Below are positions 5,338 to 64,000 of a stretch of 64,000 nt of DNA, one piece after another. The translations under genes were made by a program, and so were the position numbers. The notes beneath the pieces are model-generated. The model worked only from the letters and a program-made list of their open reading frames with translations, ran no database searches and had not been told where the DNA came from. Source of the DNA: Eledone cirrhosa (Eukaryota); contig OZ024740.1 in NCBI GenBank assembly GCA_964016885.1, forward strand, positions 281,294,001 through 281,358,000, read 5' to 3'. Position 1 is the first letter of the stretch. Every line of letters starts with the position of its first letter.

Positions 5338-5637
5338 ACATATGTATATATATATATATATATTGGGCCTTTTAATATTATTATTATTATCATTATCAAT
5401 TATATTATATTATATTATATTATATTATATATAGTACTGTAATTCTCGCTTTATATCAGCACTTGTGTTTAGTTTTAGTTTTTGCATTGTACTATATTTG
5501 TAATATGGATCAAAATGTTATTCACTTCCTTAGCAATTTTTACTTGATAATTTTCCTATGCTTTAATGTATGTATACTCCATATTCTTCTGAGTTTTCGG
5601 CTTGTATTGGCCGATAGTGCTTCTTATAGCTTTACTT

Positions 5638-5675
5638 GCCCTGATGAGTCCTTAATAGGACGAAACATTGTTGGC
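5638..5675 (+). ncRNA. Minimal type I hammerhead ribozyme at a PLE-type 3' end
   Basis: gcc-CTGATGA-gtcc(ttaata)ggac-GAAA-c(att)g-TT-ggc. Followed by AATAAA (5677) and then a (TA)n tract. Confidence 0.85.
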
Positions 5676-5716
5676 TAATAAAGACTATTGATGTATTGAA
5701 GGCTTCTTTGGTTTAT

Positions 5717-10442: not shown

Positions 10443-10645
10443 TTTTTTATTTAGGTTTGTTGGTTCACCACTGGATAGAATTGGTCATTCCGTATGGTCA
10501 ATCTTGATGTAATATTATGGAGAGTACTCAACGTAGTGCAGTTCACCCGTCCTCGTTTGTGTAGTTGGTGGTGCGAATACGGAGTTAATTATTATGAATA
10601 AAATTACAGGAGGCTGGACTGGTGTAAATCCTTGAAAGGTTTGTT

Positions 10646-10703
10646 ATACTATGATCATTTCAATGCCCGGGTTCAGTATGAATCCGGTGATATCATCAGG
10701 TAT
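10646..10703 (-). ncRNA. Type I hammerhead ribozyme
   Basis: Minus: atac-CTGATGA-tatcaccggattca(tac)tgaacccgggcatt-GAAA-tgatca-TA-gtat. Palindromic stem III. Confidence 0.8.
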
Positions 10704-10903
10704 TCGAAATATAACAAAGGAATATATAAAATCCATGGGTCCGAAAATCAGAGACAGAGAGGACGACTGACCAACTAGCTGCTTTCACCTCGGTCAGTCG
10801 CCCTTAAGTGATGGCAACTCGGTCTACTAATGACCATCTGGTGAGGGAGCGAAGGCTTATAATGTACTACACCTCTCCGTCAGAGAATAAAAAAATAAAA
10901 AAG

Positions 10904-10904
10904 A

Positions 10905-10997
<93 letters not shown>

Positions 10998-11000
10998 AGA
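10904..11000. repeat. (AAAG)n microsatellite
   Basis: Directly visible. Explains the KKER-repeat ORF. Confidence 0.95.
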
Positions 11001-12700
11001 AAAGTCAGCGTAATGGTCACACTACAGTCAGGCTAGAAAACGCCGCGAAAAATATTATTCCAAAGAACCTATATTTTAACAAAGGGTAAATAATGGGTGT
11101 CTGTATGGTCTAATGTGTGAACAGAAAATTGGAACGTTAACTTATGTTAAGAGTTATAGGATGAAATAAGATTAAAAGTTAAAATATTATTAGAAAATTA
11201 ATAGAAAATTGAAGGTTTGGGTTACGAGATTTATTTAATGAAATTACAGAGAGTGTCTTATATGAAAAAGTTTAAGTGTATTATAGGAATTTCGATAAGT
11301 TATCAAGGTGGGATATAGAGTAAAGATTAAAGCCTTCGATTGTAAATCCCAGCCAGCACCTCCTAACCACGTGTCAGCCAGTTTCGAGTGGTATCGTCTA
11401 GCGAAAGAAATGGAAATTAATTTTTCCGAGTACTCTAGGAACGTGACTGCCATAGGCTTCGGGTGTGCTAGCGGGAAGTCTACCATCTTCGACGGGCCAT
11501 CGTCTATACCAAACGAATACTATTAATTCACACAGGAGGGGTTTATTTACGTGCCAGTAGAGGGAGGCATGATACAGCTAACAGTTATGCCTGAGCCTAG
11601 ACTTTATAGGTATAAGTATAATATGGCGGTCAAAACAGGCGGCGCGGCGGTCCCCGGGGAAAATCAGGCCCGCTCCGAGTAATTTCGTTTACCGGAAGAG
11701 GGGGAAATTTATTTTTCCAAGCACTCAAGGAAGGCTGAACTTTCCGATCGCCCGGCGCACAGCCAGGAAAACCACCACATCAGTCGAAAGTAATAAAACC
11801 CAATGAAAAGTGCCAATAGACTAATTATTTTTAAGTGCCAGTAAGTCCGGGTTATAAGTATTGTGGTTCTTTGGTGGGTAGGGCTATGAAAGGTGCATAA
11901 AGACCTGAGTAAGGAATAATAAGCAGAAAATCACAAATAAATAAAAGCAGGATACAAATATAAAAATACAAAGATAAAAATACATTAATAAAAATACATT
12001 AATAAAAGTAAAAAGTAAAAAGTAAAATACATAAATAAAACGCCGTCATAGCTAGGGTAGTGATGTAGTAAGACGGAAGTATATAAGAACATATCGGAGG
12101 AATCAAAGCAAAGTGGAAATACAAAATAGATCAAGTTGCAGTAAGATAATACAAGGTTGTACATATAGATATAGAGGATGGAAGAGATGGAATGGTATCA
12201 GGTGGTACCTAGTGTAAGTTCATGTCCCAGTATTCAGTGTGAATCACAAAAAGTCCTGAAGTATAGAGTAGAGAGTTCAGTCAATACAATACATGTTTAA
12301 GTATAATGCGTAGAATTTTGTCGGAATCGGAATCATCCCGACAAGGAAGTAGTATCAGGTGGCGGTAGACAAAGCACAGAGGAGCCAAAATCCAAATGGT
12401 AAGTAAATCAGTTAATCCCATGCTGGCAATAGCTTTACACTGAAGTCAGTGCCGCTGTTCAATATTACATCTGAAAGTGCTCAACATTATTGGAGCATTA
12501 TTTATTTAGGTTTGTTGGTTCACCACTGGAAAGAACTGGTCATTCCGTACTGTCAATCTTGATGTAATATTATGGAGAGTACTCAACGTAGTGCAGTTCA
12601 CCCGTCTTCGTTTGTGTAGTTGGTGGTGCGAATACGGAGTTAATTATTATAAATAAAATAACAGGAGGCTGGACTGGTGTAAATCCTTGAAAGGTATGTT

Positions 12701-12758
12701 ATACTATGATCATTTCAATGACCGGGTTCCGTATGAATCCGGTGATATCATCAGGTAT
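12701..12758 (-). ncRNA. Type I hammerhead ribozyme (second copy)
   Basis: Same motif as 10646-10703 with two stem II substitutions. Confidence 0.8.
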
Positions 12759-12798
12759 TCGAAATATAACAAAGGAATATATAAAATCCATTGGTCCG

Positions 12799-12843
<45 letters not shown>

Positions 12844-40232: not shown

Positions 40233-40427
40233 GAGAGAAAGAATTGAGTAAAAAGAAAGAGAAAACAAGGACTTTCATAGATATCTTGTTAGATTGTCGG
40301 ATTACAAACACGCGCGCACATATATGCATACACATTTGTATGTGGATATATATATATATATATAAGCGGTTATCAAACAATTTTCTAAATAAATTAAAAA
40401 ACGATTTAAATAATCATCTGTTCTATT

Positions 40428-40507
40428 GCTGTTACCGACGGTTTCACCATTCCAAATATTAGAAATCCAGAGAATTTCCAATGGAAAGAAATGGATCTTC
40501 AGACAAC
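40428..40507 (-). ncRNA. Hammerhead ribozyme with long branched stem II (unit 1)
   Basis: Minus: gttgt-CTGAAGA-tccatt...aatggt-GAAA-ccg(t)cgg-TA-acagc. Confidence 0.8.
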
Positions 40508-40894
40508 TTATTTCCATACTATCAGGTTGCCAGCCTTGCAGAAAGTAAATATTTCGCTTCCTGCCCAACGCATGCGGTCAAGCCGTTAAAATAAGACACA
40601 CGCAAATTCAGGTCGCAGATAATAGCTGTTTATTATAAACGTGTTGATACTGCCACTAAAATTAGTAGCATTATTCAACGTTTTGTTCTCTACATAAGGA
40701 GAAAATTATAAAAGTGGATGAATACTTCAACAGGCACTAAGTACTTGTAGAAATATGCAAGGTGTTTATAATATTTGTGGTTCGATGGTACTAATTTGAG
40801 ATACCACAACAATATAAAAAGAGCGGAGCAAGCGGTTATCAAACAATTTTCTAAATAAATTAAAAAACGATTTAAATAATCACCTGTTCTATTT

Positions 40895-40973
40895 CTGTTA
40901 CCGACGGTTTCACCATTCCAAATATTAGAAATCCAGAGAATTTCCAATGGAAAGAAATGGATCTTCAGACAGC
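40895..40973 (-). ncRNA. Hammerhead ribozyme (unit 2)
   Basis: Same motif 466 bp away. Stem I ctgt/acag. Confidence 0.8.
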
Positions 40974-41363
40974 TTATTTCCATACTATAAAGTTGCCAGC
41001 CTTACCGAAAGTAAATATTTCGCTTCCTGCCCAACGCATGCGGTCAAGCCGTTAAAATTAGACACACGCAAATTCAGGTCGCAGATAATAGCTGTTTATT
41101 ATAAACGTGTTGATACTGCCACTAAAATTAGTAGCATTATTCAACGTTTTGTTCTCTACATAAGGAGAAAATTATAAAAGTGGATGAATTCTTCAACAGG
41201 CACTAAGTACTTGTAGAAATATGCAAGGTGTTTATAATATTTGTGGTTCGATAGTACTAATTTGAGATACCAGAACAATATAAAAAGAGAGCAATAGAAC
41301 AGGTGATTATTTAAATCGTTTTTAATTTATTTAGAAAATTGTTTGATAACCGCTTGCTCCGCT

Positions 41364-41447
<84 letters not shown>

Positions 41448-41718: not shown

Positions 41719-42818
41719 TTTTTTTTATTTTATTTAATGTGTGCGTATGTGTGTGTAATTATAATGAATGAAGCCCAGACCCCATCTATTTTAAAATTAC
41801 ATTTAATGCTATGTTATGAATTCTTAATATAAAATGTTAGAAAGATTTGGCGAAATTCGAGCCTTCAATTGTGACAGACAGACCAAAAATGTAATACAAT
41901 CCTTATAATATGAATAAACTATTTTTTCTTATGTTCTATGTAATGGGACAAGCTGTATGTAAACTCAGTTTTTATCGATGTTTTATTATTTCATTTATAA
42001 GACCACTCTTAATCGACAGCTTTTATGTTTACGTTTGCTAAGTTAAACATAATTTAAACGCCATCTATTCCCTTAACAATAAACTATTTACCTACATATA
42101 GGAAAACTATGTCTAAAAACATTAAATAATATGTCAAGCGTCTTGAAATAATATATGACGTCAATGTTCGTGAATATACCTGGATATTTGAATGCATGTA
42201 AATATTATGTGTGTATAGAGCATGTATCTGTGGAAATGTTTAGTACACTGAGGATGTGCGCAACTATATATAAAAGTATGTATGATCGTGATTTTGCATT
42301 TGAATTATAGTATGCAATATTTTAAGGTATATTACGATGTACTTGTATGTATGTTCGACAATCACGATATTAAAGTGAGCAAATAAAATCAAAAAGTGAA
42401 ACAGGTTTTTATTTTTGAAGAGAGAAAGAAACCAATTATTTCGGCTCCATGCAACGTTATAGCTGATATGCTAATGTTTAATTAAATTCTTTGTATAAAT
42501 TATTAGAGAATGCTGGAATTGCGCGTGGTGTTATTATCTTAAACTGTTAAATTGGAATATGAAATTGAATATAAAACGGAATAGGACTACTACAACCGAA
42601 ATGTGGAGATAAGAAGGAAGAAATCGAAACCGAACAGATGTAGGATAACGAAGGTAAGATAATGCAGTTACATCGAAATGAAAACAAAAGTTTGATCCTG
42701 TAGTAGATTAAATCGAATATATGAAAGACGAACGTATTAGAGAAATAAAAGTTTGGGAGAGATACAGATGTACTTAAATTATTAACCATTGAAGTACACT
42801 GTGTGTGTTTATATATAC

Positions 42819-42846
<28 letters not shown>

Positions 42847-42857
<11 letters not shown>

Positions 42858-43357
42858 AAGATAGACATAGAATATTCGAAAATATTCTGTATGTTTATAA
42901 TAAACATTTTGAAGACCTAATTGTAATACGTGACGTATTCTATTCTATAGCGATTAGGTCTTCAAAATGTTTATTATAAACATACAGAATATTTTCGAAT
43001 ATTCTATGTCTATCTTCACATATATATCGCTATTTCAGAGCATTTATTCCAATTTCTAATTTCTGCCGGACCGGCAACCGCTCTTTCAAACCAGTTCCTG
43101 TACACAGCTAAGTATTCTATAAGTCTCTAGCTGTGTCATTCTCGATAAAAGCACTGGATATGTAATCCTGAAGATTTCTAATGAGAATGAAACGCGTAGG
43201 TTACTTCCCTTGCTTTTATCGAGAATCTAATTGTAATACGTGACGTATTCTATTCTATAGCGATTAGGTCTTCAAAATGTTTATTATAAACATACAGAAT
43301 ATTTTCGAATATTCTATGTCTATCTTCACATATATATCGCTATTTCAGAGCATTTAT

Positions 43358-43363
<6 letters not shown>
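42847..43363 (+). mobile_element. Retrozyme-like element: 310-bp unit + 137-bp terminal redundancy + 5' inversion
   Basis: 42917-43053 = 43227-43363. 42847-42921 is the reverse complement of 42953-43027. Flanked by (TA)n. Confidence 0.85.
43138..43226 (+). ncRNA. Type I hammerhead with extended stem I
   Basis: gtaatc-CTGAAGA-tttct(aatg)agaat-GAAA-cgcg-TA-ggttac, extended by a 16-bp helix attctcgataaaagca/tgcttttatcgagaat. Confidence 0.9.
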
Positions 43364-43406
<43 letters not shown>

Positions 43407-50469: not shown

Positions 50470-51692
50470 GAAGAATGATAACATTTCAAGCAAGGAGTTT
50501 AATTAGGTAATGACTTACAAATTTGTTTCAGTATATAGACAAAGCCTGAAGCGCTAATTATAATAATTAGTTAATAATATTACAAAATATATTAATATTA
50601 TATTAAATATATACTGAAACCAATCAGTTTAGCAGAAAGTTTCCAGCCAAGAAACACGCATATTTTGCTATCCTCAAACACGTTTACACATGGCATGAAA
50701 TATAACTAATCCGAGATGGCTAGGTTTCATCTTCTAACTGGATATACGAAATCCATTATGTCTTGACAACAACATGAGGTAACATTATGTTATTCACAGA
50801 CACACTTTGTACACTGTTCCATATCAGAATGTATTTCCTTCGTCACATTCACAAACAGTATTGAAAATATGTTCTTCGGCAAATAAAAATGTTTTGTTCA
50901 TAATATTTCAACTAGCGATTGCTCTACTCCACGCACGACCACCATAAATTAATGACCAGCTCAACACAAGTATTGGTAGAGCGTCAGACACCATGCTTTG
51001 CAGTATTGTTATGGTCCTTTGCATTCTAAGTTCAAATCCTGCCGAGGTTAACTTCGACTTTCATACTTACTAATTCGATAAAATAAAGTACCAGTAATGG
51101 ACTGCCGTAATGGATTTGTGCCGAAAAATAGAAACACTATTAATGTGCAATAAGAGCAAAATATAACGACATTGCTCAATTATTTTATCTAATGTTGTAA
51201 TAACACAAGGAAATGTTGTTTGTGTATTTTTTTTTATATTTGCTCATAGGCTTTTACAATTTCGCTCAGCCAACAACTATTAAAAAGTGAGTTGCTTAAG
51301 ATAACAATTTAATCACAAATTGTTGCTATCTTTTAATACACTCCAACAAGTCATCAAATTATGTACAATAAAAACAAATCTTATTAATTTGCTCAGGGAA
51401 TATAAAGAAAATGTATATACACTGATAATTGCAATTGTATGTAAATATTTTGTTTTTGTATTGTATATTTTATGTTTTCTATTATGTATAATATATTGAT
51501 TTAATATTGATTGTTTTTTGTAGTTGTTTATATTAAAAGTCTGAAAATATTTTTATACATCTTACACTAATATTTATAAGATAATTTATAATAACAATTA
51601 CATAATCTAATTACATTACAACGATAATTTATTATTAATATATATCCTGTTTAACTAGAGTTATTACAAGCGTTGCCTTAAAAAAATATTAA

Positions 51693-52649
51693 ACTAGACA
51701 TGAAAAATGCGCAAGCTCAAAAGTGCCACAGAATGTTATAATAAACCTTCAAAAGTGTGGGACTAGAGTTGTTGCTAAAAAATATTGTAATCATTATATA
51801 TCGTACATTCTGTGGCATCCTTTATAAAAATAGCTTAAACCAACGAAGCCTTTATTTTTACGCTATTTCACTTAGTTAATTCTTAGAGTGTAACATATAA
51901 AAATAAATACATCTATGTTTAATGTAATAACAGCTATAAATAATTACGTAATATTATTATCATATACTCATAGTAACAAAATAATTGTGTTGAAACTTAA
52001 TATGATGCTTATATGAACGATCAAATCTATAATGATAATTTCTTAAATATACTAATAGTAAAATAATTTAGTTATCTATTGTTACATTTTCATAGAACTA
52101 TAATATTAACAATCGTATTGCATTATCAAATTTTTATCACTACAAACTTTCATATTGGAATTACCTTAAGCCACTTATTATTACTTCGCTTTCGTACTTT
52201 TACAGCTGTAGATATTGCGCTGTATCTTATATCTAACATCAATATCTCGTGGTAATTTGCATGAAGTGTAAAATAGGTTTATTAATAACTTTAATATGAA
52301 ATGTATTATACAGGGCTGCGGAGTCGGCCAAAAATTGACTGGCTCCAACTCAGGATCCGATACTCCATTATTTCCTAAATTTCAGCTCCGCAGCTCTGTT
52401 ATTATATTAATTAATTTATTTTATAGTTGTAAATCATATTTTTATATGTTACACTCTAAGAATTAACTAAGTGAAATAGCGTAAAAATAAAGGCTTCGTT
52501 GGTTTAAGCTATTTTTATAAAGGATGCCACAGAATGTACGATATATAATGATTACAATATTTTTTAGCAACAACTCTAGTCCCACACTTTTGAAGGTTTA
52601 TTATAACATTCTGTGGCACTTTTGAGCTTGCGCATTTTTCATGTCTAGT
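51693..52649. repeat. 213-bp inverted repeat arms ending in CTAGT (Helitron-like 3' ends facing outward)
   Basis: 51693-51905 is the reverse complement of 52437-52649, with a ~530-bp spacer. Confidence 0.85.
52311..52398. mobile_element. 88-bp hAT-type MITE
   Basis: TIRs cagggctgcggag/ctccgcagctctg. 8-bp TSD gtattata/ttattata (7/8). Confidence 0.75.
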
Positions 52650-53110
52650 AATATATATGTTATGTCGTCGACCACTGATTCCAACAACCAGCGTTCTAGG
52701 CCAGCACGTGACACCTGCGTTCCCAGCCATGGCACGCGCGACCTTGGAGTAGTTACCATGGAGATCTAGCCAGACACAGCCGAGTTCTTTGAATTTACAG
52801 ACGACAACTTTAAGACTGGCTTTTACTATTTTAACCAACTCACTGGGGCTGAGCATATAATATATATATATATGTGTGTGGGTGTTGTATGTGTGTGTAT
52901 GCGCGTGTGTGTGTGTGTGTTATATGTGTGTGTATGCGTGTGTGTGTGTATATTATATGTGTGTGTTATATGTGTGTGTGTATGTGTGTGTGTATGTGTA
53001 TGTGTGTGTGTATGTGTGTGCGTGTGTGTGGTATGTATGTGTGTGTGTGTTATATGTGTGTGTGTGTGTGTGTTTTATAAATAGGTGTGTGTTATATGTG
53101 TGTGTGTGTG

Positions 53111-55611: not shown

Positions 55612-55787
55612 TAATATATGATATATATATATATATATATAATATATATAATATATGATATATATATATATAATATATATAATATATGATATATATATAT
55701 ATATATATATATATACATTATGAAGAGAGAAGAAACATTTAGATATAATTAGTAATAAAATGTATCATACCTAAACTGCTCCTAAAT

Positions 55788-55877
55788 TCCTCGACTACGT
55801 AGTTTCGTGGCATAAACAAAAACAATATATCATAAAGATATAGAGTCCTTGCGAGGTCTGCCGACTTATCAAGAGGA
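55788..55877 (-). ncRNA. Variant-core (U3-A8) hammerhead
   Basis: Mirror copy of 56516-56605. Confidence 0.72.
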
Positions 55878-56515
55878 TACCTCATTTTACTAGTCTCAAG
55901 AACGCGTCTACACGACGTGAGAAAGAATCCCAAAAGGCGGAGGGGGAGATAGTCACGCGATATAACGGTCGAGAAATAGAGCTAAGCCTCTTATAACCCC
56001 GAAGAAAATACCACGGAGGCGGAGGGGGTATCCATATCGAGGCCGTAGAAGAGGTGGTGAAGAAGGCGAGAAGTATGAGTAATGGAAGCTTTCCAGCTGT
56101 CCCCACACTTCAAAGATTGCTCGACCAGAGGGAGTTATTAACAATATATTTAGAAACACACAGATACATGCGGACACACACATATATACATGAATGCATC
56201 CGCACCCAACTGTGAGTTAAGGGTGCCAACTTCACCGATGTTGCTCAATGAATGACTGGAACAGACCAATTCAGTTGAACTAGACTGAACCAGTATCAGA
56301 GTTAAAAATACATTATGAAGAGAGAAGAAACATTTACACCTCTTCTACGGCCTCGATATGGATACCCCCTCCGCCTCCGTGGTATTTTCTTCGGGATTAT
56401 AAGAGGCTTAGCTCTATTTCTCGACCGTTATATCGCGTGACTATCTCCCCCTCCGCCTTTTGGGATTCTTACTCACGTCGTGTAGACGCGTTCTTGAGAC
56501 TAGTAAAATGAGGTA

Positions 56516-56605
56516 TCCTCTTGATAAGTCGGCAGACCTCGCAAGGACTCTATATCTTTATGATATATTGTTTTTGTTTATGCCACGAAACTACGTAGTC
56601 GAGGA
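56516..56605 (+). ncRNA. Variant-core (U3-A8) hammerhead
   Basis: tcctc-TTGATAA-gtcggca...tgccac-GAAA-ctacgtag-TC-gagga. Confidence 0.72.
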
Positions 56606-56838
56606 ATTTAGGAGCAGTTTAGGTATGATACATTTTATTACTAATTATATCTAAATGTTTCTTCTCTCTTCATAATGTATTTTTAACTCTGATACTGGTT
56701 CAGTCTAGTTCAACTGAATTGGTCTGTCCCAGTCATTCATTGAGCAACATCGGTGAAGTTGGCACCCTTAACTCACAGTTGGGTGCGGATGCATTCATGT
56801 ATATATGTGTGTGTCCGCATGTATCTGTGTGTTTCTAA

Positions 56839-56890
<52 letters not shown>

Positions 56891-60442: not shown

Positions 60443-60838
60443 GTGTGTACAAGCCTACACATACACACACACATATATATACACACACATATACATACAT
60501 TCACACAAACATACAACGTACATACATACACATACATGAATGCACTCCACTACATATTAACACACGCAAATAAATATAAGAAAAAAATATATAAATAATA
60601 TTAACAAATATTTGACAGCGATACATGCCCCAGCTAACAGGACAGACACGCGTGGTAAGTAATACACACATAAGCGCATATACATACGTTCGAAATAGTA
60701 AACACATACACACACTCTCACACATAAATATACATATACAAATACATAAACACGTACATACACATACATACGCAAACACGTACACGTATACAATATAAAC
60801 ACACACATGTATATGTAATTATATACACACACACACAC

Positions 60839-60878
<40 letters not shown>

Positions 60879-61350
60879 TATATATATACATACAAAATAT
60901 AAAAATATAAACGCACACACACATATAAATACGTAAACACACATATACATACATAGCTAAACAATTATACACATGCAAATACGTATATATCAAAAGAACG
61001 CACAACCAAATACAAACACACACACATATATACACACACACACACCCACACACAAACCCACACATACATAAAAATAAATAAAAACACACGCAACATATAC
61101 ATACATAAACGTACATATACATACATACACATATACATATACATATATATATATACACACATATATATACACAAATATATATACATATATATATATATAC
61201 ACACGTACACGTACACATACACACATGCATACACATACACACACACATATACATGTGTGTATGTGTAAAGCTCAGTATTAGGTAAGACAAATGAACCTTA
61301 CATAAACGTATATATAGTAGTAAAGTAATAAAGCCATACAAGGCAATTAA

Positions 61351-61408
61351 TCCATTCACCAGAGGTTTCTTAAAAGCAAAAAAAGTTTCCTTCAATCTTC
61401 AGAATGAA
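61351..61408 (-). ncRNA. Paralogous hammerhead with non-canonical GUG triplet (mirror copy at 63224-63281 +)
   Basis: ttcatt-CTGAAGA-ttgaagga...gcttttaa-GAAA-cc(tct)gg-TG-aatgga. Confidence 0.65.
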
Positions 61409-61475
61409 ATATACAAATATATACACACATACAGACACGCACACACACATATATATATATACATATATATATATA

Positions 61476-61515
<40 letters not shown>

Positions 61516-62362
61516 CATACATACACACATACACACACATACATATACACACATACATACACATATATATACATACACAAACATATACGTACACATATAC
61601 ATATATACACACAAAAATACATACACATACACATAGGTATGTGAAGGGCAAAACAAAAAGAATATATGGGGTGGGGGGCCTAGAGGAGGTAAAAATATAA
61701 AGGGAGGTAAGGGGGAAAAAAATATATTTTTTAAATACAAGAGTACAGAAGGTAGAAGCAGCAAAATAAAAGCCGTAGCAAAAGTAAAGAGCAGAGAAGG
61801 AGTTCAAGGCGGTTGATTTATCGTAGGAGTGTCAATCCAGTTACAGATCAGATGCGATTTCAGATGAGGACAGCATCTGAAGATCTCAGTCTTAGAGTTA
61901 AGGCAAGCGGAAGTGTCTCTCAAGTTTAGCAAAATCCTATACTTTTCTGTGGTACACAAAGAACAATTCTTTGTGCCCCTTTGGTACTCCCTCGAATGGT
62001 CTAATATAGACCAATCAATAGAGTACGGGATATTACTATCCTTGAGATCCCATACCTTACTTGCGAGGGCCGTTGATGTTCGTTTATCTGAGTGTTTAAA
62101 AGAAGCGACATGTGAGTAAAATCTGGTTTTAAACCTGTCCTGGGTCATACCGACATATCGCTCGCTTCTGGCTGGCTGGTTGTTGATAACTGGCGTTATT
62201 TTAGCCTCATAAACGACAGATTTTGTTTTACATTTACCCTGCAATGGGCATTCATCCGGCTTCCTGCAACTGCATCCTGGATTTATCCTCGTACGGTTTG
62301 AACTGGTGATTTTGGATTTCATGGATGGACAACAAGAGTAGCTGATCTTAACTACATTCCTA

Positions 62363-63116
62363 TTGCAGGAAGCCGGATGAATGCCCATTGCAGGGTAAAT
62401 GTAAAACAAAATCTGTCGTTTATGAGGCTAAAATAACGCCAGTTATCAACAACCAGCCAGCCAGAAGCGAGCGATATGTCGGTATGACCCAGGACAGGTT
62501 TAAAACCAGATTTTACTCACATGTCGCTTCTTTTAAACACTCAGATAAACGAACATCAACGGCCCTCGCAAGTAAGGTATGGGATCTCAAGGATAGTAAT
62601 ATCCCGTACTCTATTGATTGGTCTATATTAGACCATTCGAGGGAGTACCAAAGGGGCACAAAGAATTGTTCTTTGTGTACCACAGAAAAGTATAGGATTT
62701 TGCTAAACTTGAGAGACACTTCCGCTTGCCTTAACTCTAAGACTGAGATCTTCAGATGCTGTCCTCATCTGAAATCGCATCTGATCTGTAACTGGATTGA
62801 CACTCCTACGATAAATCAACCGCCTTGAACTCCTTCTCTGCTCTTTACTTTTGCTACGGCTTTTATTTTGCTGCTTCTACCTTCTGTACTCTTGTATTTA
62901 AAAAATATATTTTTTTCCCCCTTACCTCCCTTTATATTTTTACCTCCTCTAGGCCCCCCACCCCATATATTCTTTTTGTTTTGCCCTTCACATACCTATG
63001 TGTATGTGTATGTATTTTTGTGTGTATATATGTATATGTGTACGTATATGTTTGTGTATGTATATATATGTGTATGTATGTGTGTATATGTATGTGTGTG
63101 TATGTGTGTATGTATG

Positions 63117-63156
<40 letters not shown>

Positions 63157-63749
63157 TATATATATATATGTATATATATATATGTGTGTGTGCGTGTCTG
63201 TATGTGTGTATATATTTGTATATTTCATTCTGAAGATTGAAGGAAACTTTTTTTGCTTTTAAGAAACCTCTGGTGAATGGATTAATTGCCTTGTATGGCT
63301 TTATTACTTTACTACTATATATACGTTTATGTAAGGTTCATTTGTCTTACCTAATACTGAGCTTTACACATACACACATGTATATGTGTGTGTGTATGTG
63401 TATGCATGTGTGTATGTGTACGTGTACGTGTGTATATATATATATATGTATATATATTTGTGTATATATATGTGTGTATATATATATATGTATATGTATA
63501 TGTGTATGTATGTATATGTACGTTTATGTATGTATATGTTGCGTGTGTTTTTATTTATTTTTATGTATGTGTGGGTTTGTGTGTGGGTGTGTGTGTGTAT
63601 ATATGTGTGTGTGTTTGTATTTGGTTGTGCGTTCTTTTGATATATACGTATTTGCATGTGTATAATTGTTTAGCTATGTATGTATATGTGTGTTTACGTA
63701 TTTATATGTGTGTGTGCGTTTATATTTTTATATTTTGTATGTATATATA

Positions 63750-63789
<40 letters not shown>

Positions 63790-64000
63790 GTGTGTGTGTG
63801 TGTATATAATTACATATACATGTGTGTGTTTATATTGTATACGTGTACGTGTTTGCGTATGTATGTGTATGTACGTGTTTATGTATTTGTATATGTATAT
63901 TTATGTGTGAGAGTGTGTGTATGTGTTTACTATTTCGAACGTATGTATATGCGCTTATGTGTGTATTACTTACCACGCGTGTCTGTCCTGTTAGCTGGGG
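62363..64000 (+). mobile_element. Inverted duplicate of the same Naiad 3' region (right arm of a >1.6-kb palindrome)
   Basis: 62363-64000 is the reverse complement of 62269-60628, with a 93-bp spacer. Runs off the window. Confidence 0.93.

Follow-up and report, generated by a model that had tools for sequence, protein, structure and literature searches.

Architecture of the element

Between two (TA)n tracts, the 64-kb stretch of DNA analysed here (the window) carries a tandem of period 466, with 2.0 copies and 97% matches, joined head-to-head to a short inverted piece of itself (Table 1). The two units are 97–98% alike, with 11 differences over 460 shared positions, and a motif scan located one type I hammerhead with an intact core in each, encoded by the minus strand; the cut sites predicted for the two lie 466 nt apart. 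In these respects a preliminary description of the locus has held up: it had reported two near-identical units, one ribozyme per unit at that spacing, (TA)n on both sides and an inverted junction piece of ~77 bp, which we find to reach ~41373 at 96% identity. Monomer positions are numbered here from the base after the predicted cut site. On this scale the inverted arm begins at position 3, and no clear microhomology marks its junction with the long arm. The long arm itself has its 3′ end at position 69, atypically for a family whose arms end at 87 or 192.

Translation of the unit showed stops closing all six reading frames, and none of eight Penelope-type protein queries matched it (best E 0.15). 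It thus contains no ORF with the reverse transcriptase (RT) and GIY-YIG endonuclease of an autonomous Penelope-like element, and a reading of the unit as the decayed end of a Penelope ORF was discarded for lack of any protein match. When folded, the monomer gave a z-score of -3.16, and 0 of 100 shuffles did as well. A complete type I hammerhead in two consecutive tandem units is the mark of a retrozyme, and the unit falls within the sequence-level definition of a non-LTR retrozyme in the available text of bioRxiv 10.64898/2026.07.22.740005. The earlier label "retrozyme-like" is therefore apt for a unit that has no ORF, is dispersed genome-wide and resembles none of the eight Penelope-type queries.

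Table 1. Coordinates of the two-armed element, its predicted ribozymes and further hammerhead-like motifs in the window
Feature	Position	Strand	Remarks
Left (TA)n target tract	40346..40363	.	sequence
Long arm	40364..41289	-	926 nt, two laps, monomer position 76 round to 69; same extent as the tandem of period 466
Downstream type I hammerhead	40428..40515	-	predicted cut after 40433; anatomy like upstream copy
466-nt monomer	40433..40898	-	between the two predicted cleavage sites
Internal copy of long-end motif (CAUCCACUUUUAUA)	40707..40720	-	family 3′ end, position 192
Internal copy of short-end motif (CUCUUUUUAUA)	40813..40823	-	family 3′ end, position 87
Upstream type I hammerhead	40894..40981	-	predicted cut after 40899; parts in order: GGAAA box (40981-40977), stem I, CUGAAGA (40968-40962), 50-nt rod-like stem II with UUUCC loop (40953-40949), GAAA, palindromic stem III
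Second copy of long-end motif	41173-41186		
Inverted second arm	41290..41373	+	monomer positions 3-87, ends at short end
Right (TA)n target tract	41368..41425	.	first bases indistinguishable from the element's TATA end
Hammerhead-like motifs	5625-5695, 9777, 16898, 57011, 57156	+	
Hammerhead-like motifs	5927, 10699, 12754, 17691, 59908	-	

Predicted hammerhead ribozymes

The two ribozymes differ slightly in stem I, which has 4 bp in the upstream copy (with a rare C>A at 40894) and 5 bp, including G-U pairs, in the downstream copy, where CUGAAGA starts from 40502. Neither ribozyme, at 40433 or 40899, is reported by Rfam at E≤1. We aligned 36 sequences, namely the two window copies and 34 of 46 other non-redundant relatives; of the 12 relatives left aside, 11 are chimeric or break off upstream of the core, and the twelfth carries an insertion. 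Two pairs of basal stem II are swapped from C-G to U-A, in 12 and 10 of the 36 sequences respectively, and one pair of stem I is swapped in 5 sequences. The covariation of basal stem II across subfamilies suggests that the hammerhead fold is under selection; conservation of stem III is partly built in, because the relatives were collected with the stem III motif.

Stem II had been described as branched, with an internal tttcca-tt-ggaaa hairpin and a second arm. The palindrome is indeed present (as tttcca-t-tggaaa, with one central base), but its folding into a hairpin is not borne out: in both window copies the 5-bp hairpin, which would close a 3-nt loop, has a pairing probability of 0.0 and an 11-bp apical helix one of 0.99. 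Folded alone, each stem II favours a rod with that 11-bp apical helix in 35 of the 36 sequences, and neither of the proposed arms shows a two-sided change. RNAalifold, run on the gapped alignment, retains the small hairpin as a weak consensus (-2.25 kcal/mol, no two-sided change), 95% pairable across the alignment. A multi-helix junction inside stem II was accordingly rejected, on the single-sequence folds and the absence of two-sided changes.

The internal-loop UUUCC of stem II is complementary to the GGAAA box 5′ of stem I. Across the alignment 97% of cells pair, and the box is conserved in 33–36 of the 36 sequences, compared with 17–31 for neighbouring columns. The loop may thus pair with the box as a pseudoknot, an idea that we treat as a lead only, since a two-sided change occurs in just one sequence of the 36. 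The same loop-to-flank pairing could form in another element, an unrelated hammerhead (L326:1757-1885, plus strand) with UUUCCA in a long stem II and UGGAAA upstream.

As described in the available part of PMC4209133, hammerheads thought to act as dimers share with ours the type I topology, a stem I of 4–5 bp, a 7-bp basal stem II and a short palindromic stem III. Unlike them, the ribozymes studied here have an extra 11-bp apical helix beyond the internal loop, as well as the possible 5-bp pairing of that loop with the GGAAA box; the word "pseudoknot" is absent from the main text of that paper. On its own the stem III palindrome forms no helix; two copies of it pair at -11.3 kcal/mol. In 30 of the 36 sequences the bases facing each other at the first (basal) position of stem II do not pair, most of them being U-U, and a U-U also lies at the base of stem II in axolotl HHR_Amex2. 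The axolotl retrozyme with this feature is described as cleaving weakly by itself and more efficiently in dimeric form (PMC7229834), while eight of nine predicted frog retrozymes are reported to have failed to cleave in vitro (bioRxiv 10.64898/2026.07.22.740005).

Dispersal, fixed ends and the pairing of arms

Copy number, which the preliminary description had proposed to determine, is that of a dispersed multi-copy family: the 466-nt unit returned 1,855 candidate places in the 3.0-Gb genome, of which 40 were scored, with relatives at ~70% to 98% identity. A 13-mer from the 3′ half of the ribozyme has 749+699 (1,448) matches, against 291+291 (582) for its reversed control, leaving ~870 ribozyme-motif matches above background; an 18-mer of the young subfamily has 134+110 (244), against 0+0 for its control. 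In three sequencing runs of unknown kind, from one sample, 29% of the unit's words were found, and two of the runs show only a multi-copy repeat.

Our main sample consists of the 74 insertions that hold the first 100 of the 244 18-mer matches in genome order; 26 further insertions, biased to full length, form an extra set. Of 113 arms in the main sample, 104 end near position 87 (45 arms) or 192 (59 arms). These fixed 3′ ends terminate in TATA and nearly always run into (TA)n, while 5′ ends vary; the long arm in the window is one of the nine arms lacking a canonical end. The 74 insertions comprise 33 that are simple head-to-head, 28 that are single-armed and 13 set aside as complex. Both ends are canonical in 25 of the 33 head-to-head insertions, and every one of these 25 combines 87 with 192. 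Independent choice at 45:59 would yield mixed pairs about half the time, so that the chance of 25 in 25 is ~2 in 100 million. The other eight, the window copy (69+87) and L182 among them, have at least one non-canonical end; L182 is a possible long+long pair (197 and 192), in which one end has no TA after it. All seven pairs of canonical ends in the extra set are likewise 87+192. An inverted second arm is therefore usual in this family, and is known from Penelope elements, rather than being peculiar to the window copy.

Two traits of Penelope-mobilised insertions are found here, namely partial tandems with 5′ truncation plus an inverted 5′-truncated copy, and two alternative 3′ ends. Microhomology of at least 2 nt occurs at 14 of 41 arm junctions, compared with 18% for random joins; target-site duplications are unreadable inside (TA)n. 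The 5′ ends near the two priming sites exceed expectation (11 against 4.5, and 8 against 2.8). We set this excess aside as evidence, as the windows were chosen post hoc and TA microhomology would also explain it.

Local duplication of DNA, in the form of a satellite or a 3′ UTR remnant and without an RNA intermediate of its own, is a highly improbable account of these data. Adjacent laps that share a variant (L16, L17) do point to some DNA-level duplication within long arrays, yet the copies are scattered in their hundreds through the genome, flanked by (TA)n and fixed at the 3′ end but not at the 5′ end. This is at odds with local duplication, as are the missing link to an ORF and inverted arms that end differently from the main arm. 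The preliminary description had itself raised a locally duplicated 3′ UTR of a coding element; in 177 locus stretches the unit is nowhere the correctly oriented 3′ UTR of a Penelope-type ORF, and although 35 of the 177 lie near a Penelope-type match, none has a consistent 3′ UTR arrangement by inspection. Judged by the pattern of ends, local duplication is refuted for the family and may apply to single laps.

Penelope-type elements and end pairing beyond the 466-nt family

A search for GIY-YIG domains returned 10,597 candidate places, of which 150 were scored. The long frames match RT plus GIY-YIG, two of the RT scores falling just under Pfam's cut-off, and the RT+GIY-YIG frames carry a CxxxxCxxC linker. 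Families of this type fit the description of Neptune or Nematis in the available text of PMC8557442. Two Neptune-like families end in (TA)n behind hammerheads of their own, at ~80 or 148 nt past the cut in one and at 125 or 188 nt in the other. One Neptune-like family, L128 (e.g. L245-L274), has at least 40 copies that are 100% identical over 311 nt, some of them in tandem 4.2 kb apart, and has thus been active very recently.

A second two-armed retrozyme, very young and with a 310-nt unit, lies in the window at 42810-43400, 1.4 kb from the 466-bp tandem; its hammerhead has a predicted cut after 43198 (plus strand) and its ends lie ~139 and 165 nt past the cut. In this family the arms reach up to 16 laps at 99% identity, with one haplotype running through both. 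Wherever both ends are visible, the short and the long end are combined, in 29 of 29 such loci (of 37) for the 310-nt family and in 6 of 6 and 4 of 4 for the two Neptune-like families (30 loci each), counts in which only the second arm is informative because the queries ended at the long end.

Among 57 Penelope-type locus stretches, and among 47 sources searched with a ribozyme model, no ORF-bearing element had ends homologous to the 466-nt unit; both sets are a small part of the 10,597 GIY-YIG places. The search for such a partner in the GIY-YIG loci did yield one more retrozyme copy (L334), together with the weak long-stem ribozyme of L326 (E 0.35). The copy at L111 was considered as part of a Neptune-like element and rejected: it is a separate insertion 1.5 kb behind an 844-residue frame, in a (TA)n tract that follows the ribozyme and the end belonging to that element.

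Probable continuity of the template

Sequence differences amount to 2.5% between laps of one arm, 2.3% between opposite arms and 5.0% between insertions. Within insertions, 82 of 91 pairs differ by less than the median distance to other insertions, a count that includes 11 pairs from the duplicated locus L206. Among the 99 arms that extend as far as position 10, 95 continue through the cut site, and arm ends do not pile up there (4 at positions 1–10, against 3.0 expected); the start of the window's inverted arm at position 3 is therefore likely to be chance. At the cut-site junction 81 of 105 matches carry identical sequence and one is shorter. One long array (L061/L062, G000:C1:156425700-156438600) spans 12.9 kb and is built of a 457-nt sister unit; it has 19+9 ribozyme motifs in opposed arms that end at 87 and ~194. 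Its units are nearly identical, 17 of 26 being the same across both arms.

These observations bear on a model in which the enzyme copies cleaved linear monomers and builds tandems because, on reaching a monomer's 5′ end, it jumps to the 3′ end of another. The window's inverted arm begins 2 nt from the cut site, as such jumping would allow, and five ends lie at positions 6–10 (L001 and three others in the 74-insertion sample, and L212 in the extra set). However, the ends show no excess at the cut site, most junction matches are of one sequence, and laps share a haplotype, which would be lost if the enzyme jumped among transcripts of different loci; nor is there an excess of A>G (65, against 71 T>C), so that scars of RNA editing are likewise lacking. 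We disfavour this model and regard it as improbable.

A more serious competitor keeps the Penelope enzymes and replaces the circle with an uncut linear multimer transcript, the ribozyme being slow or gated by protein. Arms that run on past the cut site, and insertions with a single haplotype each, suit it as well as they suit a circle. Some variants are confined to certain laps (L305, L312 and L314 in the 310-nt family; position 194 in the 466-nt family), which implies a further role for subsequent conversion, for recombination or for a multimer template; such partly shared variants fit a multimer template, and a single monomer circle fails to explain them without later conversion or recombination. 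For the anole element, moreover, the available text of PMC11167929 describes hammerhead mutants without effect on insertion in vitro and uncut RNA as the dominant substrate. Against a multimer, arms of 19 units, and of 16 laps in the 99% identical family, call for long source arrays or later expansion, because 5′ truncation shortens arrays in each round, and the covariation indicates a fold kept across subfamilies. We consider an uncut template possible though rather unlikely.

Proposed mechanism

The element at this locus is probably a non-LTR retrozyme insertion mobilised by Penelope enzymes, and those enzymes likely came from a Neptune-like Penelope element inserting into (TA)n, to judge from the linker-bearing families and their ends. 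Given Penelope-driven copying, we lean towards a circular template over an uncut multimer. The pattern of the family fits either. The preliminary description read the locus as the source of a non-coding circular RNA, which it may be if this copy is transcribed.

Transcripts of dimers such as this one are predicted to cut themselves, two hammerheads probably pairing by their palindromic stem III to act as a dimer, and the resulting 466-nt monomer would be ligated into a circle. A Penelope endonuclease would cut both strands of (TA)n, and both DNA 3′ ends would prime reverse transcription on the same RNA species at two internal UAUA sites, 87 and 192. Each cDNA would pass the cut site, which requires a template covalently continuous there, whether as an uncut multimer or as a ligated circle. 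Finally, the cDNAs would be joined to each other, often via short microhomology. In its fullest form, a dimeric Penelope RT-endonuclease would prime both ends of a double-strand cut at two dedicated and non-interchangeable sites of one ribozyme-made circle, with rolling-circle reverse transcription in both directions, short+long pairing as a general law of Neptune elements and a pseudoknotted hammerhead with a long stem II; this conjunction we put forward only tentatively.

Relation to known systems

The element class is itself already known. Metazoan non-LTR retrozymes, as described in the available text of PMC7229834 and bioRxiv 10.64898/2026.07.22.740005, are, like those studied here, non-coding tandem units with one type I hammerhead each, low in GC, ranging from dimers to long arrays and co-existing with Penelope elements. 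The 466-nt unit is longer than the 170–400 nt given by Cervera and de la Pena 2020 (PMC7229834) and within the 51–972 bp of Li, Clavereau and Pollet 2026 (bioRxiv 10.64898/2026.07.22.740005). It departs from the retrozymes so described in its inverted arms, fixed double ends, (TA)n targeting and 50-nt stem II; neither "inverted" nor "microsatellite" occurs in the main text of PMC7229834. Searches of the literature on octopus hammerheads, Penelope-like elements and circular RNA returned no description of the 466-nt family.

The resemblance to Neptune-clade elements is close. Their published descriptions (Craig et al. 2021, PMC8557442; Frangieh et al. 2024, PMC11167929) include partial tandems, 5′ truncation and an inverted 5′-truncated copy, a one-ended tail and microsatellite targets, and a hammerhead near the 3′ end as well as two internal RT start sites. 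Tandem or inverted structure, a one-ended tail and a bias towards microsatellites are given for Penelope-like elements more widely (PMC8557442). The purified anole Penelope protein, for which a dimer is predicted, both cleaves and extends the two strands, and it starts at two internal sites that define the tail (PMC11167929). Unlike these elements, the family studied here has no ORF, and its tail is 105 nt, compared with the 30–40 bp described. The strict pairing of a short with a long arm is absent from the Penelope descriptions in the available portions of PMC8557442 and PMC11167929, and the anole study in vitro reports no difference in start site between strands, unlike the pairing seen here. 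Neither strict end pairing nor two-armed retrozymes were found in the main texts of the open literature searched.

Mobilisation of retrozymes by Penelope elements via circles has been proposed (PMC7229834) and has phylogenetic support (bioRxiv 10.64898/2026.07.22.740005); in their available text, the papers proposing it for animal retrozymes leave the copying step undemonstrated, and the origin of the tandem and inverted Penelope structures is called undefined in one paper. In the present family the template is short and non-coding, and the positions at which priming is predicted are exact, at 87 and 192 nt beyond the cut. Its strict pairing rule recurs in autonomous elements of the same genome, and there is evidence that copying passes the cut site. 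With such a template the question of circle mobilisation and that of the origin of tandem and inverted structures become one defined in vitro experiment. If true, the short+long rule would explain both the Penelope "tail" and the inverted ends.

Other features of the window

The window contains about ten more hammerhead-like motifs (Table 1), several of them behind Penelope-type frames. An HDV-like ribozyme at 2729-2811 on the minus strand (Rfam CPEB3, 61.2 bits, E 3.4e-14) is likely the 5′ ribozyme of a LINE: a frame of 439 residues without stops, which matches endonuclease-RT families, overlaps it at its start. A palindrome of at least 3.4 kb at 60628-64000 (98% identity, centre ~62316) has a GIY-YIG-type C-terminal frame in both arms and is likely a Penelope-type insertion of inverted structure. 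The intervals 55713-56845 and 51686-52654 contain further elements of fold-back or inverted-end type with arms 99% identical, the former lying between (TA)n tracts. Finally, the region 10443-12803 holds 306-nt direct repeats 2 kb apart with a minus-strand hammerhead in each, an arrangement resembling a pLTR pair.
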